Positions 1 through 6,652 of a stretch of 6,652 nucleotides of DNA are shown here, piece by piece. The position numbers and the translations under genes are program-made. A model generated the notes under the pieces. That model was given only the letters and a program-made list of their open reading frames with translations. It made no database searches and had not been told where the DNA came from. This DNA is from a virus (taxonomy: Duplodnaviria; Heunggongvirae; Uroviricota; Caudoviricetes), in IMG/VR virus record IMGVR_UViG_2671180921_000008, positions 1-6,652 of that record. The stretch is one strand, 5' to 3'. Positions within the stretch are counted from its first letter, which is position 1; every line of letters begins with the position of its first letter.

Positions 1-242
1 AATACGGTGCTCCGTTGACGCTTACGCCGAATAAGCTCATCTCTCATGCATTCCGGGCATTCGCTAGGTCTTGAGGCAAACTTAATTGGCCCAGTCGAGT
101 AACGGTTACGCTGCTCAAACTCACCATGTTTTTCACAGATGCCAGTGCCAATTTCTACAGCTGTATGCTCGATAGCAATTGGCGGAGAACTCAATTCTGC
201 AAGTTTTTTCTCAAGTTGGGAGATCTTTTCATCCAGCGTCAT
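1..242 (-). CDS. Hypothetical replication-module protein, N-terminal part only (runs off the window start); sits where lambda has P / the helicase loader
   Basis: Minus-strand ATG at 242..240, 2 nt after the O-like stop (TGA 247..245). Translation MTLDEKISQLEKKLAELSSPPIAIEHTAVEIGTGICEKHGEFEQRNRYSTGPIKFASRPSECPECMRDELIRRKRQRSTV. C-x2-H and C-P-E-C pairs suggest a zinc ribbon. It does not resemble lambda P; function is inferred from position only. Confidence 0.4.
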   Translation of the reverse strand, partial: MTLDEKISQLEKKLAELSSPPIAIEHTAVEIGTGICEKHGEFEQRNRYSTGPIKFASRPSECPECMRDELIRRKRQRSTV

Positions 243-244
243 GT

Positions 245-1120
245 TCACTCCTGCGCCCATGAAGGCATTTCAGTTTGTCCGTAATCTTTGGTGGCAAAGT
301 TTTCCTGCATAGCTCGATGCTGCGGCCTCGGTTGAGATTTCCCCTTTGGAGTCTTGGGCTCAAAAATCCCCTGCCAACCACTGGCGATGCTCTGGTTTAT
401 AATTTCTTCAGGTGTATATCCCTTCCCCAGACTTCTGCTTAGAACGTTGATAGCCTGAGTAACACTTTGCTTAGACTTGATCGACTTACCTATCTCCTTG
501 CGATATGTAACCCACGACAACCATGTTTCTGCTGATAACCAATCAGGCAACTCTGTTTCTAGCGGGTCGAACTTCTGAGAAACTTTTTTGGGGGATATAG
601 GGGGTTTATTAATATTTTCTTTTGTCTTTAAAGAATGTCTTTTGTGTGTCTCTAACTTCGAGACATTGAGTGTCTCTAATTTGGAGACATTTTTTGTCTC
701 TAACTTCGAGACAAAGTTGCTAACTTGGAGACACTTGCTGAATTGCCACGCAGATACCTCAATGTTTACACCGATTTGATTTCCATCCATAAACAGGCAA
801 TTCATTGAAATCAGTTCTTTTTTAGCCTTGTTAACATTCTGCCTTGACAGTCCTGTTAACTGAGCAATTTGCTCATCGGCTATTCGATCTGTTTTCTTAT
901 TGAATCCATATGTTTTCCGGACGTAGGCCAGCATAACTTTCAACTGGCGAGCGGTTAAATCGGCACTTGCGATAGCTTCCAGCAGCTCGTTAGCGAATCT
1001 GGTGTAACCATCATCGATATCAGCCACTCTTCGCTCCTGTTCAACAGGTTCACTCTTCGGCAGGTAAAATACTTCAGCCAGGCTCATTTCCAACCTCCGC
1101 ATCAAAGCATTGGGCTTCAA
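245..1120 (-). CDS. O: Replication initiator, lambda O family (N-terminal iteron-binding domain conserved, C-terminal domain divergent)
   Basis: 291-aa ORF. The segment QERRVADIDDGYTRFANELLEAIASADLTARQLKVMLAYVRKTYGFNKKTDRIADEQ aligns with the lambda O N-terminal domain as I recall it. The ori iterons lie inside the gene, as in lambda. The true start may be ATG 1087..1085, which has a GGAGG 7 nt upstream, rather than 1120. Confidence 0.85.
   Translation of the reverse strand: MKPNALMRRLEMSLAEVFYLPKSEPVEQERRVADIDDGYTRFANELLEAIASADLTARQLKVMLAYVRKTYGFNKKTDRIADEQIAQLTGLSRQNVNKAKKELISMNCLFMDGNQIGVNIEVSAWQFSKCLQVSNFVSKLETKNVSKLETLNVSKLETHKRHSLKTKENINKPPISPKKVSQKFDPLETELPDWLSAETWLSWVTYRKEIGKSIKSKQSVTQAINVLSRSLGKGYTPEEIINQSIASGWQGIFEPKTPKGKSQPRPQHRAMQENFATKDYGQTEMPSWAQE
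648..733. repeat. Replication origin iterons: four 18-bp direct repeats, each an internal inverted repeat (GTCTC...GAGAC), with a flanking AT-rich tract at about 590-647
   Basis: GTCTCTAACTTCGAGACA (648-665), GTCTCTAATTTGGAGACA (672-689), GTCTCTAACTTCGAGACA (696-713), GTTGCTAACTTGGAGACA (716-733), spaced about 24 bp. Inside the O reading frame they encode the repeated VSKLET peptide. The adjacent AT-rich stretch (tttattaatattttcttttgtctttaaagaatg) lies downstream in the O direction, matching lambda ori layout. Confidence 0.75.
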
Positions 1121-1718
1121 GAGACTTAACCATCACCACACTGCCATCTGTATTAATAACTATCGATGAGTTATATTTGCTTATCAGTTGCTTCGCGTAA
1201 TCAATTCCGGCGCGAATAAGGAAATTTTTCACCGCAGGAAGATGACCAACTACACTACCCAGACCTTGCTCTATAAGCTCCTCATTAAGATCAAGCTCAT
1301 TTTCATGGCGAAAAGAAATGAATGAGTCGTAAATTGCGTATTCTGCCGTCTCGCCATTTCTTTCAGGGCCAACCAGCGCCCTTATTTCATTTAGAGATTC
1401 AGAAAGATCATTATCTTCAAGCTTGAAAAACTCTCGATTATCACTAAGCCTCTCTTTTGCAAAGGCTTTATGAATGAGTTTTTCATCTGATGCGGGATTA
1501 TTTGAATGAAAGGCTGCTATCACCTTAAATGGCTTAGGAACGCCAGTAGAGGCTGAAATTTCTTTAGCCCTAACTTCTGGTGAATGCTTAGTCATCCCAA
1601 TCTTATAAATTCCTGGCATGCACTCATTCGAAAGCACATAAACAAAGCCATTTGATTTAAAATCATCTGGCACCTTCATGCTCTTCAGAACCTGGAATTT
1701 GTCATTTTCGTATGTCAT
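1074..1718 (-). CDS. T5orf172 / GIY-YIG-like domain protein (moron between cII/oop and O)
   Basis: 214-aa ORF with AGGAG 6 nt before the ATG. The N-terminal motif GFVYVLSNECMPGIYKIGMT...EVRAKE matches the T5orf172 (MUG113-type GIY-YIG-like) signature as I know it. The C-terminal ~90 aa are unassigned. Lambda has no gene at this position. Confidence 0.65.
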   Translation of the reverse strand: MTYENDKFQVLKSMKVPDDFKSNGFVYVLSNECMPGIYKIGMTKHSPEVRAKEISASTGVPKPFKVIAAFHSNNPASDEKLIHKAFAKERLSDNREFFKLEDNDLSESLNEIRALVGPERNGETAEYAIYDSFISFRHENELDLNEELIEQGLGSVVGHLPAVKNFLIRAGIDYAKQLISKYNSSIVINTDGSVVMVKSLEAQCFDAEVGNEPG

Positions 1719-1731
1719 AATTACTCCTGTG

Positions 1732-1804
1732 GATTGATCCAGTAATTCCCTCAGAATTGCATATCAATTTGCTTAAAATCCTCGGTGGCAGCCGGGGATT
1801 TTTT
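1732..1804 (+). ncRNA. oop: oop-like antisense RNA with intrinsic terminator, overlapping the 3' end of cII
   Basis: GATTGATCCAGTAAT...CCTCAGAA...CCTCGGTGGCAGCCGGGGATTTTTT resembles lambda oop RNA as I recall it. Terminator hairpin 1780-1797 (7 bp, two G-U pairs) followed by a T-run 1799-1804. It is antisense to the cII 3' end. The promoter lies around 1699-1725 (TTGTCA at 1699-1704; the -10 is ambiguous). Confidence 0.5.
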
Positions 1805-2047
1805 CTTTGTGATTTCATCAAGCGCATACTTAAAAGCCCTGCTAATCGGACTGATGTCTGATGCCATTCCGAAAGCACACAAGACCGAAGCAATAAATCT
1901 CCAGTCCGTTCTGCTTATCTTCGATTCATGACAGCCAATCATCTTTGCCAGACCGCGCTGGGTAAGCGTTGACAGGTTGATGAGTAAATCAGTTTCAGCG
2001 CGATCAACGTCGCGCTGTGATAGTTTGCTGTAACTTGTTTGTTCCAT
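1751..2047 (-). CDS. cII: cII-family transcriptional activator (not the lambda allele)
   Basis: 98-aa ORF directly downstream of cro and nutR. The C-terminus KKKSPAATEDFKQIDMQF matches lambda cII KKRPAATERSEQIQMEF, and the central region has the same helix-turn-helix-like layout. Most of the sequence diverges from lambda cII. Confidence 0.8.
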   Translation of the reverse strand: MEQTSYSKLSQRDVDRAETDLLINLSTLTQRGLAKMIGCHESKISRTDWRFIASVLCAFGMASDISPISRAFKYALDEITKKKSPAATEDFKQIDMQF

Positions 2048-2060
2048 TTCTTATGATTTC
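2025..2060 (+). promoter_or_regulatory. Putative pRE (cII-activated promoter) with a TTGC-N6-TTGT repeat
   Basis: TTGCTGTAACTTGT at 2025-2038 resembles the lambda cII site TTGC-N6-TTGC. It overlaps the cII start codon region on the opposite strand, as in lambda. The -10 is not clearly defined. Confidence 0.3.
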
Positions 2061-2074
2061 CAATAGTGAATATT

Positions 2075-2097
2075 ACGCATCTGTTGATGCGTTTTTT
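2075..2097 (+). terminator. Hairpin plus T6 run in the cro-cII intergenic region (intrinsic-terminator-like on plus strand; on the minus strand it lies in the tR1 zone)
   Basis: 7-bp perfect stem ACGCATC (2075-2081) / GATGCGT (2086-2092), 4-nt loop, T-run 2092-2097. Confidence 0.3.
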
Positions 2098-2099
2098 GT

Positions 2100-2137
2100 G
2101 GGGACGAATCATCCCCGACCTGATTGTTTAAAGAGCG
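2100..2137 (-). promoter_or_regulatory. nutR: nutR: boxA CGCTCTTTAA and boxB hairpin GGGGATGATTCGTCCCC
   Basis: On the minus strand: boxA consensus at 2137..2128, an 11-nt spacer, then boxB at 2116..2100. The identical boxB recurs in nutL downstream of pL. Confidence 0.65.
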
Positions 2138-2144
2138 GTGTTAC

Positions 2145-2354
<210 letters not shown>

Positions 2355-2369
2355 TTAGTACATGCAATC

Positions 2370-2439
2370 ATTATCACCGCTAGAGGTAAAATAGTCAACA
2401 CGCACGGTGTTAGATATTTATCCCTTGCGGTGATAGATT
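2370..2439. promoter_or_regulatory. Right operator OR1-OR2-OR3 with divergent promoters pR (toward cro) and pRM (toward cI)
   Basis: OR1 TATCACCGCTAGAGGTA (2372-2388), OR2 CAACACGCACGGTGTTA (2396-2412), OR3 TATCCCTTGCGGTGATA (2419-2435). pR on the minus strand: -35 TTGACT (2398..2393), -10 GATAAT (2375..2370). pRM on the plus strand: -35 TAGATA (2411-2416), 17-bp spacer, -10 TAGATT (2434-2439). The cI ATG at 2446 implies a leaderless transcript, as in lambda. Confidence 0.9.
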
Positions 2440-2442
2440 TAA

Positions 2443-3159
<717 letters not shown>

Positions 3160-3189
3160 AGCACATAGCATTCCTGGATAAAAATACAG

Positions 3190-3232
3190 ATTCCCTTTAT
3201 GGGAAATGAATCTATAATTCCCAAAGAGGGAA
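3190..3232 (+). promoter_or_regulatory. Putative promoter-operator of the toxin-antitoxin cassette: two TTCCC-N5-GGGAA palindromes flanking a TATAAT
   Basis: Palindrome 1 TTCCCTTTATGGGAA (3191-3205); perfect -10 TATAAT (3213-3218); palindrome 2 TTCCCAAAGAGGGAA (3218-3232). This is the usual autoregulated TA operator layout. The -35 is weak. Confidence 0.45.
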
Positions 3233-3244
3233 CTACATCGGATT

Positions 3245-3532
3245 ATGAAGGTCTTAAACGTAGAGAAGCTTCACAGTTTTAGCCGGAAACACAATCAGGC
3301 CAAGGGGGCTTTAGACTCTTGGTATGATGAAGTGAGAAGAGAAAACTGGAAAACGACTCAAGACATACGGAATAGATTTAATTCTGCCGACTTCCTTCCT
3401 GACAACAGGGTAATTTTTAATATAAAAGGCAATAACTATCGGCTCGTTGTCCAAGTTGTTTACCAAGCAGGAATTGTCATAGTTGAAAAAGTTGGAACTC
3501 ATGCAGAGTACGACAAGTGGAGACTTAAATGA
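3245..3532 (+). CDS. higB: HigB-family toxin (ribosome-dependent mRNA interferase, RelE/ParE superfamily)
   Basis: 95-aa ORF. FNIKGNNYRLVVQVVYQAGIVIVEKVGTHAEYD aligns with E. coli HigB (YgjN) FNVGGNELRVVAMVFFESQKCYIREVMTHKEYD along its full length, as I recall that sequence. The stop overlaps the next start (ATGA at 3529-3532). Confidence 0.8.
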   Translation: MKVLNVEKLHSFSRKHNQAKGALDSWYDEVRRENWKTTQDIRNRFNSADFLPDNRVIFNIKGNNYRLVVQVVYQAGIVIVEKVGTHAEYDKWRLK

Positions 3533-4185
3533 ATCGAACTAGCTGGCGCATCATTAAAAATAGTGAAGAGCATGCTGCAGCTATGGAAAGGCTCATTGAA
3601 CTTGCGTCTAGTGATTTACAACCTGGAACTGAAGATTTTGATGAGTTTGAACTACTAGGCTTGCTTATTGAGCACTATGAGTCACGCGAGTTCCCTATGG
3701 ACAAGCCAGACCCCATAGAAGCAATCAAGTTCCGCATGGATCAGCAAGGCCTCTCTTATGCCGACATGAAACAATACATTGGCTCAGCATCTAAAGTATC
3801 TGAGGTCTTAAATCGTAAGCGTCCATTAAGTCTTTCAATGATCCGTAGACTGCATGACGGGCTTGGCATTCCTGCAGATATCTTAATTCAAGATATGAGC
3901 GCAATTGAATGGAGTCTGGTTGACGCTGAGGAAGAAGAAACGACAATGACTAGCGTCATTGTTCAGTGTGAGTCAGCCGCCACATCATCTTCTCCTTATT
4001 ACGCTGAAAAGGCTACAGAATCTTACGTTTCAAAAATGTTGTTCAGCGCAGTAAGGGGTAACGGCGAATGCAAAGAAAAACGGAATGTTTTTTCTTTGAT
4101 AAGTAACTTGTCATCAAGTTTCACAGCAGCTAACAACCTGAATGACGAAATGACTCCTGACGGGAATTACTCATTAGTATCATGA
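3529..4185 (+). CDS. higA: HigA-like HTH antitoxin with a ~95-aa C-terminal extension (candidate chaperone-addiction region)
   Basis: 218-aa ORF. Residues ~1-123 align with E. coli HigA (YgjM): IEAIKFRMDQQGLSYADMKQYIGSASKVSEVLNRKRPLSLSMIRRLHDGLGIPADILIQ versus IAVIRTLMDQYGLTLSDLPEIGSKSMVSRVLSGKRKLTLEHAKKLATRFGISPALFID. Residues ~124-218 are an acidic, Ser-rich extension with aromatic patches (SPYYAEKATESYVSKMLF). Start and stop are both translationally coupled (ATGA) to the neighbours. Confidence 0.75.
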   Translation: MNRTSWRIIKNSEEHAAAMERLIELASSDLQPGTEDFDEFELLGLLIEHYESREFPMDKPDPIEAIKFRMDQQGLSYADMKQYIGSASKVSEVLNRKRPLSLSMIRRLHDGLGIPADILIQDMSAIEWSLVDAEEEETTMTSVIVQCESAATSSSPYYAEKATESYVSKMLFSAVRGNGECKEKRNVFSLISNLSSSFTAANNLNDEMTPDGNYSLVS

Positions 4186-4586
4186 AAATTGAACTCATTA
4201 GCAAAAAAGTTGAACGCTTGGTTATGAAGCAGCTAGAAGCTGATTCAGCGGCAAAAAAAAACCTGAACGCAACCGTTAAGCTGAATAATGAACTTTACAC
4301 TAATGTGAAGGATTCAAAGCTATTTAGAGTGAGATATTTTACCTCCATAACCATTGAAGGTAGACTAGAGATGGACATCACATACGACTTTGATTTTCGG
4401 TCAGAAGATGATTTTTCCCATGAAATGGCAAAATCACATGAGATAAGGTCCATTGCTCCCACTATGGCATATCCCTATATAAAAACATATGCCGAGCAAA
4501 TTATCCTCATGTCAAATCTTGGTAGGTTCAATCTTCCTTACTTTGATTTCTTGACCAATCCCATGGAAACGAACAGCAATAAGTGA
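4182..4586 (+). CDS. SecB-like chaperone (third component of a TAC-type module)
   Basis: 134-aa ORF. YPYIKTYAEQIILMSNLGRFNLPYFDFL aligns with E. coli SecB [31 protein letters not shown], and VKLNNELYTNVKDSKLFRVRYFTSITIEG with SecB [31 protein letters not shown], as I recall SecB. It is coupled to the antitoxin stop by ATGA and has no hydrophobic transmembrane stretch, so it is not RexB-like. Confidence 0.65.
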   Translation: MKIELISKKVERLVMKQLEADSAAKKNLNATVKLNNELYTNVKDSKLFRVRYFTSITIEGRLEMDITYDFDFRSEDDFSHEMAKSHEIRSIAPTMAYPYIKTYAEQIILMSNLGRFNLPYFDFLTNPMETNSNK

Positions 4587-4595
4587 AATCCCCCA

Positions 4596-4621
4596 CCCGG
4601 CCTCAGCGCCGGGTTTTCTTT
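4596..4621 (+). terminator. Rho-independent terminator closing the cI/cassette transcription unit
   Basis: Perfect 6-bp GC stem CCCGGC (4596-4601) / GCCGGG (4608-4613), 6-nt loop, then TTTTCTTT. It lies 10 nt after the last cassette stop, just upstream of OL. Confidence 0.7.
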
Positions 4622-4774
4622 GCCTCTCGATCCCCACACCTAATAACACCATAACCAATTGTATTTATTGAAAAATTTATAGATACAACTTGCTAAATAG
4701 TGCAATTCTGATCCCTCACCTACCAAACAATGCCCCCCCTGCAAAAAATAAATCCATATAAAAAACATACAGAT

Positions 4775-4837
4775 AACCATCTGCGGTGATAAATTATCTC
4801 TGGCGGTGTTGACACACATACCACTAGCGGTGATACT
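4775..4837 (+). promoter_or_regulatory. Left operator OL3-OL2-OL1 with promoter pL (rightward in this window)
   Basis: OL3 AACCATCTGCGGTGATA (4775-4791), OL2 TATCTCTGGCGGTGTTG (4795-4811), OL1 TACCACTAGCGGTGATA (4819-4835). -35 TTGACA (4809-4814), 17-bp spacer, -10 GATACT (4832-4837). Near-identical to the lambda pL/OL region as I recall it. Confidence 0.88.
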
Positions 4838-4882
4838 AAACACATCAGCAGGAAGCTGGAAGCCAAACGGAACAGATTGGCA

Positions 4883-4921
4883 GGCTCTTTAACATTGATG
4901 GAATGGGGATGATTCGTCCCC
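4883..4921 (+). promoter_or_regulatory. nutL: nutL: boxA GGCTCTTTAA and boxB hairpin GGGGATGATTCGTCCCC
   Basis: boxA at 4883-4892, 12-nt spacer, boxB at 4905-4921 (GGGGA/TCCCC stem). boxB is identical to nutR on the other strand and lies about 45-80 nt downstream of the pL start. Confidence 0.65.
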
Positions 4922-5076
4922 ACCAAAGAGAGGTTGGCTTTGGGATTTGATGAATGCGCAGGTCGATGCGCTACCACTTAGCGGTGAGCACCTGCATTTT
5001 GGGCAGGATGGATAGCCGCAATAAGGGGATCGACACATGACATCAAATCACCAAAGTCAATCATCGGAGGTATCCA

Positions 5077-5283
5077 GTGAAAGCAAGAGAGATTCGCAAA
5101 CTCGAACGCGCTCGTAAGCACAAAGAGGCGACAGCAAAACGTAAAAATATTGACCGTGTTTCAATGGTGGTTTCGCTAGCAGGAGCGAATAGGAAGAAGG
5201 TTGAATGTGGTTCGTGCTGCCTGCCAAACGTAGCCATTTACGCGGCAGGCTACCGGAAATCAAAACAACTGACAGCAAGATGA
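5077..5283 (+). CDS. N: N-like transcription antiterminator, N-terminal arginine-rich part; apparently truncated (see the out-of-frame C-terminal remnant)
   Basis: GTG start at 5077 with GGAGG 6 nt upstream. N-terminus MKAREIRKLERARKHKEATAKRKNIDR is an arginine/lysine-rich motif typical of N-family boxB-binding peptides. First gene after pL-nutL. Ends at TGA 5281-5283 after 68 codons. Confidence 0.6.
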   Translation: MKAREIRKLERARKHKEATAKRKNIDRVSMVVSLAGANRKKVECGSCCLPNVAIYAAGYRKSKQLTAR

Positions 5284-5285
5284 CT

Positions 5286-5333
5286 TGTGTTGGTCGCCAG
5301 AAAATGAAATTAGGCAGCAAACCACTTATTTGA
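5286..5333 (+). pseudogene. N: Out-of-frame 3' segment encoding a lambda-N-like C-terminus (CVGRQKMKLGSKPLI-stop)
   Basis: In the frame offset by 2 nt from the N ORF, 5286-5330 reads CVGRQKMKLGSKPLI then TGA. Lambda N ends ...TCSGRQKIKGKSIPLI as I recall it. This frame is closed upstream by TGA at 5202-5204. Confidence 0.5.
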
Positions 5334-5341
5334 GGTGATAT

Positions 5342-5428
5342 ATGGAAGAAGAATTTGAAGAGTTCGAAGAGCATCCTCAGGATGTGATGGAACAATACCA
5401 GGACTACCCTTATGACTACGACTATTGA
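5342..5428 (+). CDS. Small acidic 28-aa ORF (MEEEFEEFEEHPQDVMEQYQDYPYDYDY), possibly the lambda orf28 equivalent
   Basis: ATG at 5342 with GAGGTGA 4-5 nt upstream. It overlaps the start of the next ORF. Below the length cutoff of the ORF track. Function unknown. Confidence 0.4.
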   Translation: MEEEFEEFEEHPQDVMEQYQDYPYDYDY

Positions 5429-5612
5429 TAAGAATCAATGGTGTGGACAATTCAAGCGATGCAATGGATGCAAGCTGCAATCGGAATGCATGGTTAAGCC
5501 TGAAGAAATGTTTCCTGTAATGGAAGATGGGAAATATGTCGATAAATGGGCAATACGAACGACGGCAATGATTGCCAGAGAACTTGGTAAACAGAACAAC
5601 AAGGCTGCCTGA
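5412..5612 (+). CDS. ral: Small Cys-rich protein, 66 aa; tentatively Ral-like (restriction alleviation) by length and position
   Basis: 66-aa ORF MTTTIDKNQWCGQFKRCNGCKLQSECMV... with C-x5-C-x2-C-x5-C spacing. Same length and early-left-operon position as lambda Ral. I cannot verify sequence identity from memory with certainty. Confidence 0.45.
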   Translation: MTTTIDKNQWCGQFKRCNGCKLQSECMVKPEEMFPVMEDGKYVDKWAIRTTAMIARELGKQNNKAA

Positions 5613-5639
5613 TGGTGGCCTTTATTTTTAAGGAGCTAT

Positions 5640-5882
5640 ATGAAAATTAAAACTATGGCAGCAAGCCCATTAAGCGGTCGTATTTTTCAAGGAACATTAA
5701 ACACTGAAAAAGGAATGTGGGTAGGAAAGAAAGAAGATGTCACCGAACAAGCGATTAAGGCAGTAACTGAACACCTGATGATAAAAGACCGGAAATATGC
5801 ATACGAAACGAATGATGGCAAATGGGTGATAATAATGCATCAACTGGTTGATGAATTACCAGAAGAGTTTATTGCTGATTAA
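5640..5882 (+). CDS. Hypothetical protein, 80 aa
   Basis: ATG at 5640 with AGGAG 4 nt upstream. No motif recognised. Confidence 0.5.
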   Translation: MKIKTMAASPLSGRIFQGTLNTEKGMWVGKKEDVTEQAIKAVTEHLMIKDRKYAYETNDGKWVIIMHQLVDELPEEFIAD

Positions 5883-6008
5883 AATTATTTTGGCATAAAC
5901 AACAGAATAAACACTGCACTGTGTATTCATTCCAACGAGTGAATACACGGAGCAATGTCGCTCGTAACTAAACAGGAGCCGACTTGTTCTGATTATTGGA
6001 AATCTTCT

Positions 6009-6036
6009 TTGCCCTCTAATGTGAGGGCGATTTTTA
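6009..6036 (+). terminator. Rho-independent terminator (tL-type, expected to be read through under N antitermination)
   Basis: Stem GCCCTC (6011-6016) / GAGGGC (6023-6028), extendable by two pairs, 6-nt loop, T-run 6031-6035. Confidence 0.55.
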
Positions 6037-6055
6037 TCTATGAGGATATGAATAG

Positions 6056-6211
6056 ATGTCAAACATCAAAAAATACATCATTGATTACGACTGGAAAGCA
6101 TCAATAGAAATTGAAATTGACCATGACGTAATGATAGAGGAAAAACTTCACCAGATTAATAATTCTGGTCAGACTCTGAATACCGACTCAATAAACACGG
6201 CTCTGTATTAA
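6056..6211 (+). CDS. Hypothetical protein, 51 aa (possibly the 5' half of a frameshift-split gene)
   Basis: ATG at 6056 with GAGGA 9 nt upstream. MSNIKKYIIDYDWKASIEIEIDHDVMIEEKLHQINNSGQTLNTDSINTALY. Below the ORF-track cutoff. Confidence 0.35.
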   Translation: MSNIKKYIIDYDWKASIEIEIDHDVMIEEKLHQINNSGQTLNTDSINTALY

Positions 6212-6225
6212 ATGCTGTATTAATC

Positions 6226-6423
6226 ATGCTGGAGCAACATGCTCTGCTTATAGCAATTTCAAGCGACTTAAATGCATATGGTGTTGTGTGTGAGTTCGAC
6301 TGGAATGATGGAAATGGTCAGGAAGGATGGCCTCCAATGGATGGTAGTGAAGGAATAAGAATTACCGATATCGATACATCAGGAATATTTGATTCAGATG
6401 ATATGACTATCAAGGCCGCCTGA
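6226..6423 (+). CDS. Hypothetical acidic protein, 65 aa (possibly the 3' half of a split gene)
   Basis: ORF from the track. Its frame is already open from 6163, overlapping the 3' end of the preceding ORF in a different frame. Confidence 0.4.
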   Translation: MLEQHALLIAISSDLNAYGVVCEFDWNDGNGQEGWPPMDGSEGIRITDIDTSGIFDSDDMTIKAA

Positions 6424-6448
6424 GCGCGGCGTTACCGCATACCAATTA

Positions 6449-6469
6449 CGCTTCACTCGAGGCGTTTTT
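6449..6469 (+). terminator. Weak terminator-like hairpin with T5 run upstream of cIII
   Basis: Stem CGCTTC (6449-6454) / GAGGCG (6459-6464) with one G-U pair, 4-nt loop, T-run 6465-6469. Confidence 0.3.
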
Positions 6470-6495
6470 CGTTATGTATAAATAAGGAGCACACC

Positions 6496-6636
6496 CTGCA
6501 ATATGCCATTGCAGGGTGGCCTGTTGCTGGCTGCCCTTCCGAATCTTTACTTGAACGAATCACCCGTAAATTACGTGACGGATGGAAACGCCTTATCGAC
6601 ATACTTAATCAGCCAGGAGTTCCCAAAAATGGATAA
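6496..6636 (+). CDS. cIII: cIII-like ORF (lambda cIII homolog) lacking an ATG at the expected start (CTG) and ending at a TAA earlier than I recall for lambda
   Basis: Frame reads (L)QYAIAGWPVAGCPSESLLERITRKLRDGWKRLIDILNQPGVPKNG then TAA. This matches lambda cIII MQYAIAGWPVAGCPSESLLERITRKLRDGWKRLIDILNQPGVPKNG... as I recall it. AAGGAG (6484-6489) sits 6 nt before the CTG at 6496. The TAA at 6634-6636 coincides with codon 3 of the overlapping kil-like frame. Confidence 0.5.
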   Translation: MQYAIAGWPVAGCPSESLLERITRKLRDGWKRLIDILNQPGVPKNG

Positions 6637-6652
6637 AACACTTATGGCTATC
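6629..6652 (+). CDS. kil: kil-like ORF, first 8 codons only (MDKTLMAI...), overlapping the cIII 3' end
   Basis: ATG at 6629 with AGGAG 9 nt upstream. The N-terminus resembles lambda Kil (MDQTLMAI...) as I recall it, and lambda kil overlaps cIII in the same way. It runs off the window end. Confidence 0.35.

Follow-up and report, generated by a model that had tools for sequence, protein, structure and literature searches.

The 6,652-bp stretch of DNA analysed here (the window; positions 1–6,652 of the IMG/VR virus record IMGVR_UViG_2671180921_000008, Caudoviricetes) is the immunity region of a lambda-immunity prophage and carries O, an open reading frame (ORF) with a T5orf172/MUG113 domain, cII, cro and a gene for a 237-residue lambda-type cI repressor. 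The cI gene (2446–3159, + strand; HTH_3 and Peptidase_S24 domains) is homologous to that of lambda up to its stop codon. It is followed on the same strand by a three-gene toxin–antitoxin–chaperone (TAC) cassette consisting of higB (3245–3532), the first gene, which codes for a 95-residue ribosome-dependent mRNA interferase toxin of the RelE superfamily, higA (3529–4185), which codes for a 218-residue helix-turn-helix (HTH) antitoxin and predicted repressor, and higC (4182–4586), which codes for a 134-residue SecB-like chaperone. The last base of the cI stop codon is at 3159, and the ATG of HigB begins at 3245. The 85-bp gap between them (3160–3244, + strand) is specific to the cassette, makes up the left end of the HigBAC module and contains the subject of this analysis, a pair of palindromes arranged around a −10-like hexamer.

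The first palindrome, O1 (TTCCCtttatGGGAA, i.e. TTCCC-TTTAT-GGGAA), occupies positions 3191–3205 with its centre at 3198, and the second, O2 (TTCCCaaagaGGGAA, i.e. TTCCC-AAAGA-GGGAA), occupies positions 3218–3232 with its centre at 3225. They are located 13 to 54 nt upstream of higB, and their TCCC cores are found at −53 and −26 relative to the higB start codon. The hexamer TATAAT, the −10 element of the predicted promoter, runs from 3213 to 3218 on the + strand, its final T being the first T of O2. A candidate −35 element, ATTCCC (3190–3195, + strand, 17-bp spacer; alternatively TTCCCT with a 16-bp spacer), can be read from the sequence and overlaps the left half-site of O1. The segment 3180–3244 reads aaaaatacagaTTCCCtttatGGGAAatgaatcTATAATTCCCaaagaGGGAActacatcggatt and is followed by the higB ATG at 3245. 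A preliminary description of the window had reported two 15-bp TTCCC-N5-GGGAA palindromes spaced 27 bp centre to centre, a perfect TATAAT between them, the 85-bp gap between cI and the toxin gene, and a weak Shine–Dalgarno sequence in front of the latter, and every one of these details is borne out, the ribosome-binding signal being a lone GGA 5–7 nt before the ATG.

When the window is searched for TTCCC-N5-GGGAA with up to one mismatch, O1 and O2 are the sole matches. Shuffled versions of the window are expected to contain 0.14 such sites, and two or more matches anywhere were found in 2 of 200 shuffles. The base composition predicts 0.004 perfect sites for 6,652 bp; given one perfect site, another would occur within 40 bp with a probability of about 5e-5. 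Another inverted repeat, formed by 3182–3193 with 3208–3219, was dismissed as it is not kept in relatives.

O1 and O2 are very probably HigA operators inside an autoregulated sigma-70 promoter of the higB–higA–higC cassette. Their predicted placement, with O1 over the −35/spacer region (approximately −34 to −20) and O2 over the end of the −10 element, the predicted start and the early leader (approximately −7 to +8), is that of antitoxin-autoregulated type II toxin–antitoxin promoters, and the cognate antitoxin HigA carries a DNA-binding HTH domain. The antitoxin-autoregulated promoter that the preliminary description had proposed is supported by the linkage of the palindrome to higBA across phyla, by its co-variation with the HigA recognition helix, and by the layout of the higBA promoter of Escherichia coli K-12, which are presented below.

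With TATAAT as the −10 element, transcription would start at about 3225 (predicted range 3223–3226) and the leader would be about 20 nt long. The half-site centres within each palindrome are 10 bp apart, so one HigA dimer is expected to bind each palindrome on one face of the DNA. O1 would then cover the weak −35 element and the spacer, and O2 the last base of the −10 element, the start site and the first bases of the leader, such that HigA or HigBA(C) bound to either site would exclude RNA polymerase and result in negative autoregulation. Loss of HigA, which would follow titration of HigC by a phage protein, would leave the operators empty and allow the promoter to fire. In a lysogen, the cassette would probably also receive read-through from cI (the pRM promoter), like rexAB in lambda. 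Such read-through is plausible, since the terminator scan finds no + strand terminator between cI (3159) and higB (3245) and the cassette sits in the slot of the pRM-transcribed rexAB of lambda.

The strongest link between the palindrome and higBA is found in distant relatives. A scan of contigs for higBA gave at least 80 distant two-component loci from many phyla (Gamma- and Betaproteobacteria, Bacteroidota, Chloroflexi, Verrucomicrobia and others), which, together with the TAC loci that were fetched, comprise 65 non-redundant loci with a usable HigB start. All counts and statements for these loci hold among the matches listed. A perfect TCCC-N5-GGGA is present within 100 bp upstream of higB in 52 of the 65 loci, and a site with no more than one mismatch in 62. 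The upstream regions contain 58 sites in 6.5 kb vs 2 sites in 373 kb of flanking DNA, an enrichment which, taken with the conservation in relatives, excludes chance. As in the window, the sites concentrate at −53 and −26 relative to the start codon, with −26 being the commonest position, and most distant loci have a single palindrome.

The palindrome overlaps local promoter elements of the type used by the clade wherever it is present. Four marine gammaproteobacterial loci (L019, L023, L007 and L003) display the full layout of O1, a 12-bp linker ending in TATAAT, and O2. As these are two-component loci, the arrangement is older than the acquisition of the chaperone. Betaproteobacterial loci have one AGTCCC-N5-GGGACT that exactly occupies the distance from a TTGnnn to a TAAACT-type hexamer. 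Those of Bacteroidota have the palindrome directly before TAnnTTTG, which is the usual −7 element in this phylum. As a side observation, about 7 nt separate the end of the −10-like hexamer from the HigB start codon in the betaproteobacterial loci (L017–L067), which makes it probable that the higB mRNAs there are leaderless or nearly so.

Besides the window, 12 TAC lineages were collected, one locus at a time, via HigA homologues (one from Klebsiella, two from Salmonella, three from Serratia, two from Citrobacter, one each from Yersinia, Morganella and Pectobacterium, and phage BP-4795). In 10 diverged lineages, in which HigA is 47–89% identical over the aligned part, both TTCCC/GGGAA pairs, the TATAAT and the length of the 12-bp linker are invariant. 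Sequence drift is seen in the N5 spacers, in the linker, in the leader and in the flank upstream. The cassette and its upstream region are about 95% identical in Stx phages (BP-4795, ST2-8624 and many Stx1a phages), and 88 of the 5426 complete E. coli genomes match at least 80% of window positions 3100–4700. In BP-4795, the cassette stands behind an unrelated cI, with the palindromes and TATAAT unaltered. More generally, the intergenic DNA of the cassette follows unrelated repressors in Stx phages and in prophages of Klebsiella, Salmonella, Serratia, Citrobacter and Yersinia.

This pattern bears on a different view of the locus, namely that the palindromes are HigA sites and TATAAT is not a working promoter, so that the cassette is expressed solely by read-through from cI (pRM/pRE) and HigA acts at most as a roadblock or is a relic. 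The cassette is indeed located directly downstream of a prophage repressor in 12 of the 13 TAC lineages (L001, L084–L097; the exception is Serratia marcescens L087), the repressors being Peptidase_S24 types of different lengths or of the Phage_CI_repr type, and the gap in the window is free of + strand terminators. The weak −35 element and the lack of a call by the promoter scan (see below) point the same way. On the other hand, none of the 10 TAC lineages departs from TATAAT or from its exact register with the two operators, which indicates selection on the hexamer, the non-prophage two-component relatives with the same layout would have to use it as a promoter, and the K-12 homologue of this layout has a mapped start site (PMC2814082). 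Expression by read-through only is thus considered improbable.

The second line of evidence for HigA as the ligand is that the outer base of the half-site varies with the recognition helix of HigA across loci, here again among the matches listed. The helices SKVSEVL, RVSEVL and RASEIL pair with TTCCC/GGGAA. Loci with NRVYEVL or NRVYEIL contain GGGAC in 20 of 20 cases and also GTCCC in 17 of the 20, and both loci with GRVSEVL (2/2) contain CTCCC/GGGAG. This co-variation points to HigA as the reader of the palindromes.

The same data were used to weigh an RNA-level function, in which O1 and O2 would pair with each other in the read-through RNA, forming a hairpin about 14 bp long upstream of higB that controls processing, stability or translation of the toxin message. 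The predicted fold does pair 3191–3205 with 3218–3232 (minimum free energy of the 101-nt segment −21.4 kcal/mol, z = −2.06, with 9 of 200 shuffles as good), and the spacers of the TAC clade, T-rich in O1 and A-rich in O2, make cross-pairing possible. However, it is the identity of the half-site bases that is conserved, beyond mere pairing ability, and its changes track the recognition helix of HigA. Most of the distant loci have a single palindrome. Complementarity of the spacers is perfect in L087 only and poor in L088, and a transcript from the predicted promoter would hold only half of O2. An RNA element is therefore viewed as very improbable. The mirror-image spacers themselves (T-rich at 3196–3200 and A-rich at 3223–3227 in the window; also seen in L087–L096) could reflect either DNA bending or RNA structure.

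Least credible is the proposal that the palindromes bind another protein (lambda cI/Cro, LexA or a host factor), serve as a terminator for cI, or occur by chance. They do adjoin cI, a LexA-like box is found next to them, and in the terminator scan they are flagged for the minus strand alone. The presence of the same palindromes upstream of non-phage higBA in many phyla speaks against another protein. Lambda cI/Cro operators (17-bp half-palindromes of the TATCACCGC type) show no similarity to O1 and O2, which are in non-lambda DNA; lambda-type operators are found at OL next to pL, at approximately 4775–4835. An intrinsic terminator was rejected, the stems being 5 bp long with no U-tract (T-run) after them on the + strand, and chance is ruled out by the upstream enrichment and the conservation in relatives described above.

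The closest known counterpart of the putative HigA-controlled promoter is that of higBA (ygjNM) in E. coli K-12, for which the start has been mapped by primer extension and which is repressed by HigA; its transcription is induced in a Lon-dependent manner (Christensen-Dalsgaard et al. 2010, PMC2814082). Upstream of K-12 higB are GTTGCCaatctGGCAAC, then ggatgtTATCATa, then TTGCCaatttGTCAAC (L083, 4457–4530, − strand). As in the window, twin 5-N5-5 palindromes surround a −10 element (TTGCC-N5-GGCAA, TATCAT, TTGCC-N5-GTCAA), the operon is toxin-first, HigB belongs to PF09907, and HigA consists of an N-terminal helical part and an HTH domain. Unlike in the window, the half-site is TTGCC/GGCAA (one base different) and the centres are 29 bp rather than 27 bp apart. 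The K-12 proteins are 27% (HigB) and 41% (HTH region of HigA) identical to those of the window, K-12 HigA lacks a ChAD tail, and neither a chaperone nor a prophage context is found at the locus. The K-12 and Shigella HigBA proteins are the nearest solved structures to the window proteins (5IFG and 6KML for K-12).

The best-studied working model for a twin-operator layout is Phig of Proteus vulgaris (plasmid Rts1), in which O1 and O2 each take one HigA dimer in a non-cooperative manner and one operator suffices for repression (PMC12266136). Similar to the layout predicted for the window, Rts1 has a toxin-first operon with two inverted-repeat operators over the −35 and −10 elements. Its HigB and HigA belong to an unrelated sequence family, its operators have other sequences, and there is no chaperone. 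The centre of Rts1 O2 is at approximately −5, whereas that of O2 in the window is predicted to be at +1.

A number of points weigh against the interpretation of O1 and O2 as HigA operators of an autoregulated promoter. HigA binding and promoter activity at this site are both predicted from sequence comparison. A consensus promoter scan calls no promoter at O1/O2, because no −35 element there reaches 4/6 matches, and the candidate −35 element is poor (3/6). The Morganella and Pectobacterium TAC loci contain O1 followed by a −10-like hexamer and no perfect O2, from which it would follow that the second site is not obligatory. The recognition helix classes are linked to clades, so that their co-variation with the half-sites represents few independent events. 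HigA with its ChAD tail engaged around the HigC tetramer may be unable to bind DNA. Finally, neither ‘operator’ nor ‘autoregulat’ occurs in the text of the preprint on the HigBAC system of E. coli NT1F31, in which the genes were expressed from Ptet or PBAD (10.1101/2024.02.24.581848); the cis-elements treated here thus fall outside that publication, and the activity of the native promoter is undocumented.

The boundaries of the cassette are sharp. In an alignment with lambda, homology ends directly after the cI stop codon and resumes at an intrinsic terminator (4595–4614, + strand) found by the terminator scan, which is common to lambda, where it is located downstream of rexB, and marks the right end of the cassette. 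From there the homology continues through the OL operators to the pL hexamers (4809–4837). The cassette (3160–4594), comprising the three genes and the 85 bp upstream of them, substitutes exactly for lambda rexA–rexB. The palindromes are a part of the cassette and not of lambda, because the lambda homology stops at the cI stop codon. Between the unrelated repressor and HigBAC, BP-4795 and Citrobacter retain a non-coding remnant of a lambda-type cI 3′ end (..CAGTGGCCTGAAGAGACGTTTGGGTGA), and Klebsiella retains part of it (L001, approximately 2501–2530, and the intergenic regions of L089 and L084). This remnant suggests that recombination within the end of cI carried the cassette out of a lambda-type cI context.

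HigB matches the Pfam family HigB_toxin (PF09907) with an E-value of 2.8e-30 and the PADLOC model PD-Lambda-2_A with an E-value of 1e-43, and the solved structures closest to it are those of HigB from E. coli and Shigella (5IFG and 5YCL). HigA is longer than its two-component relatives (218 vs about 130 residues) and consists of a region with an HTH_3 domain (residues 67–118) and a ChAD tail (residues 122–218). The HTH_3 match (E = 5e-4, 20.4 bits) is below the Pfam cut-off of 23 bits. This domain is the best-conserved part of the HigA family, and HigA matches E. coli K-12 HigA (5IFG), with homology to the HTH of the latter, at E = 7e-5. The N-terminal 125 residues match PADLOC PD-Lambda-2_B at E = 3e-50. 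Of note, the PD-Lambda-2_B profile is 402 positions long, and its A/B components are matched by HigB and these 125 residues (window 3245–3900), which suggests that the same toxin–antitoxin core has been reused with different C-terminal sensor modules.

HigC is called SecB-like because it matches PADLOC PD-T4-9_C (CmdC, the chaperone of CmdTAC) at E = 2.8e-11, because two of seven HigC homologues are matched by the Pfam SecB model (best E-value 1.4e-5), and because it has the published pocket residues. The window HigC itself gives no Pfam match, and its sequence gives no PDB match either singly or as a seven-sequence profile. The higA start has GGAG 7 nt before it and shares an ATGA with the higB stop codon, and the higC start overlaps the stop codon of higA in the same way (ATGA). 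Together with the weak Shine–Dalgarno sequence of higB, these signals fit low translation of the toxin and coupled translation of the antitoxin and the chaperone.

Judged by protein lengths and key residues, the cassette is a close variant of the known antiphage system HigBAC. In E. coli NT1F31, a lambdoid prophage carries this system behind cI, in the RexAB slot of lambda; the system is triggered by lambda gpV, which competes with the ChAD tail of HigA for the HigC chaperone, and both chaperone-dependent neutralisation and phage defence have been demonstrated (Mets et al., 10.1101/2024.02.24.581848). The NT1F31 and window systems both replace rexAB, and in both HigA is 218 residues long with a ChAD tail at 122–218. 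The window HigA has the aromatic residues W128, Y158, F188 and Y214 at the positions reported for NT1F31 HigA, with W128, F188 and Y214 being common to both and residue 158 being Y in the window and F in NT1F31. The pocket residues Y39, N41, R49 and D71 of NT1F31 HigC are all retained. In the M. tuberculosis TAC system (HigB1–HigA1–SecB-like, Rv1955–1957), the antitoxin is likewise described as carrying a ChAD tail (PMC5105189 and PMC6377645, as summarised in 10.1101/2024.02.24.581848). The tripartite logic of toxin, antitoxin with ChAD tail and chaperone is thus similar to that of the window, but the M. tuberculosis ChAD is less than half as long. Fivian-Hughes and Davis reportedly found in 2010 that M. 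tuberculosis HigA1 represses its own promoter via a palindrome.

In the open-access literature searched, nothing relevant was found on HigA with a TTCCC or GGGAA motif, an absence that is no proof of novelty. The site appears not to have been described before; the type of control is ordinary, the cassette was already known, and the general picture of toxin–antitoxin autoregulation is unchanged. HigBAC is a recently characterised prophage-borne antiphage system, the native transcriptional control of which is undescribed in the literature searched. The putative operators give a testable model, in which loss of HigA, after a phage tail protein has hijacked HigC, would feed back on expression of the cassette. 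They would also explain how the cassette stays self-contained on moving from one prophage to another in which the repressor is unrelated. What the analysis chiefly adds is the conservation across phyla and the pairing of helix and half-site. An operator found across phyla with three helix/half-site pairings constitutes a small natural data set for HTH specificity, and the pairings may offer a way to predict cross-talk among co-resident HigA paralogues.

A candidate LexA (SOS) box, TCCTGGATAAAAATACAGAT (CTG-N10-CAG), occupies positions 3172–3191 and abuts O1, at approximately −53 to −34 of the predicted promoter. Its heterology index of 8.4 is the best in the window when scored with a matrix derived from 20 LexA boxes of E. 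coli (training range 0.5–9.2), and 3 of 100 shuffles are as good. A CTG-N10-CAG is found at the same position in four other lineages (L087, L088, L093 and Citrobacter L096, the last with the canonical CTGTATACATGAACAG). Four lineages (Klebsiella, S. salamae, S. fonticola and Yersinia) have a broken box, and three have none. It is a lead, not a finding.

Taken to its limit, this material could be read as a joint proposal in which the cI–higB gap is a three-input control node, TTCCC-N5-GGGAA is a near-universal operator of the HigA family with a simple helix-to-base code, and co-resident copies regulate each other. As a whole, this proposal is rather doubtful. If it were true, pRM read-through would report lysogeny, the HigA operators the status of the antitoxin and chaperone, and the LexA box the SOS response, and the defence cassette would be boosted exactly during cI cleavage. 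Cross-regulation would then occur, for example, between PD-Lambda-2-type systems or other higBA copies.

A second LexA-like box (CTGG-N8-ACAG, TACTGGATCAATCCACAGGA) is found at 1725–1744 on the − strand, with a heterology index of 10.2 from the same matrix. It is located 6 nt upstream of the ATG of the ORF with the T5orf172/MUG113 domain (1074–1718), which is inserted between cII and O. At the other end of the window, the N gene (5077–5283) matches PF25694 over profile positions 44–100 only. A frameshift in this region was considered and dropped, as the ORF reaches the end of the N_peptide profile (Pfam). Downstream of the N gene (to 5333), the 3′ end of another N type (..CVGRQKMKLGSKPLI) is found almost unchanged but out of frame, and this lambda-N-like tail looks like a recombination remnant.

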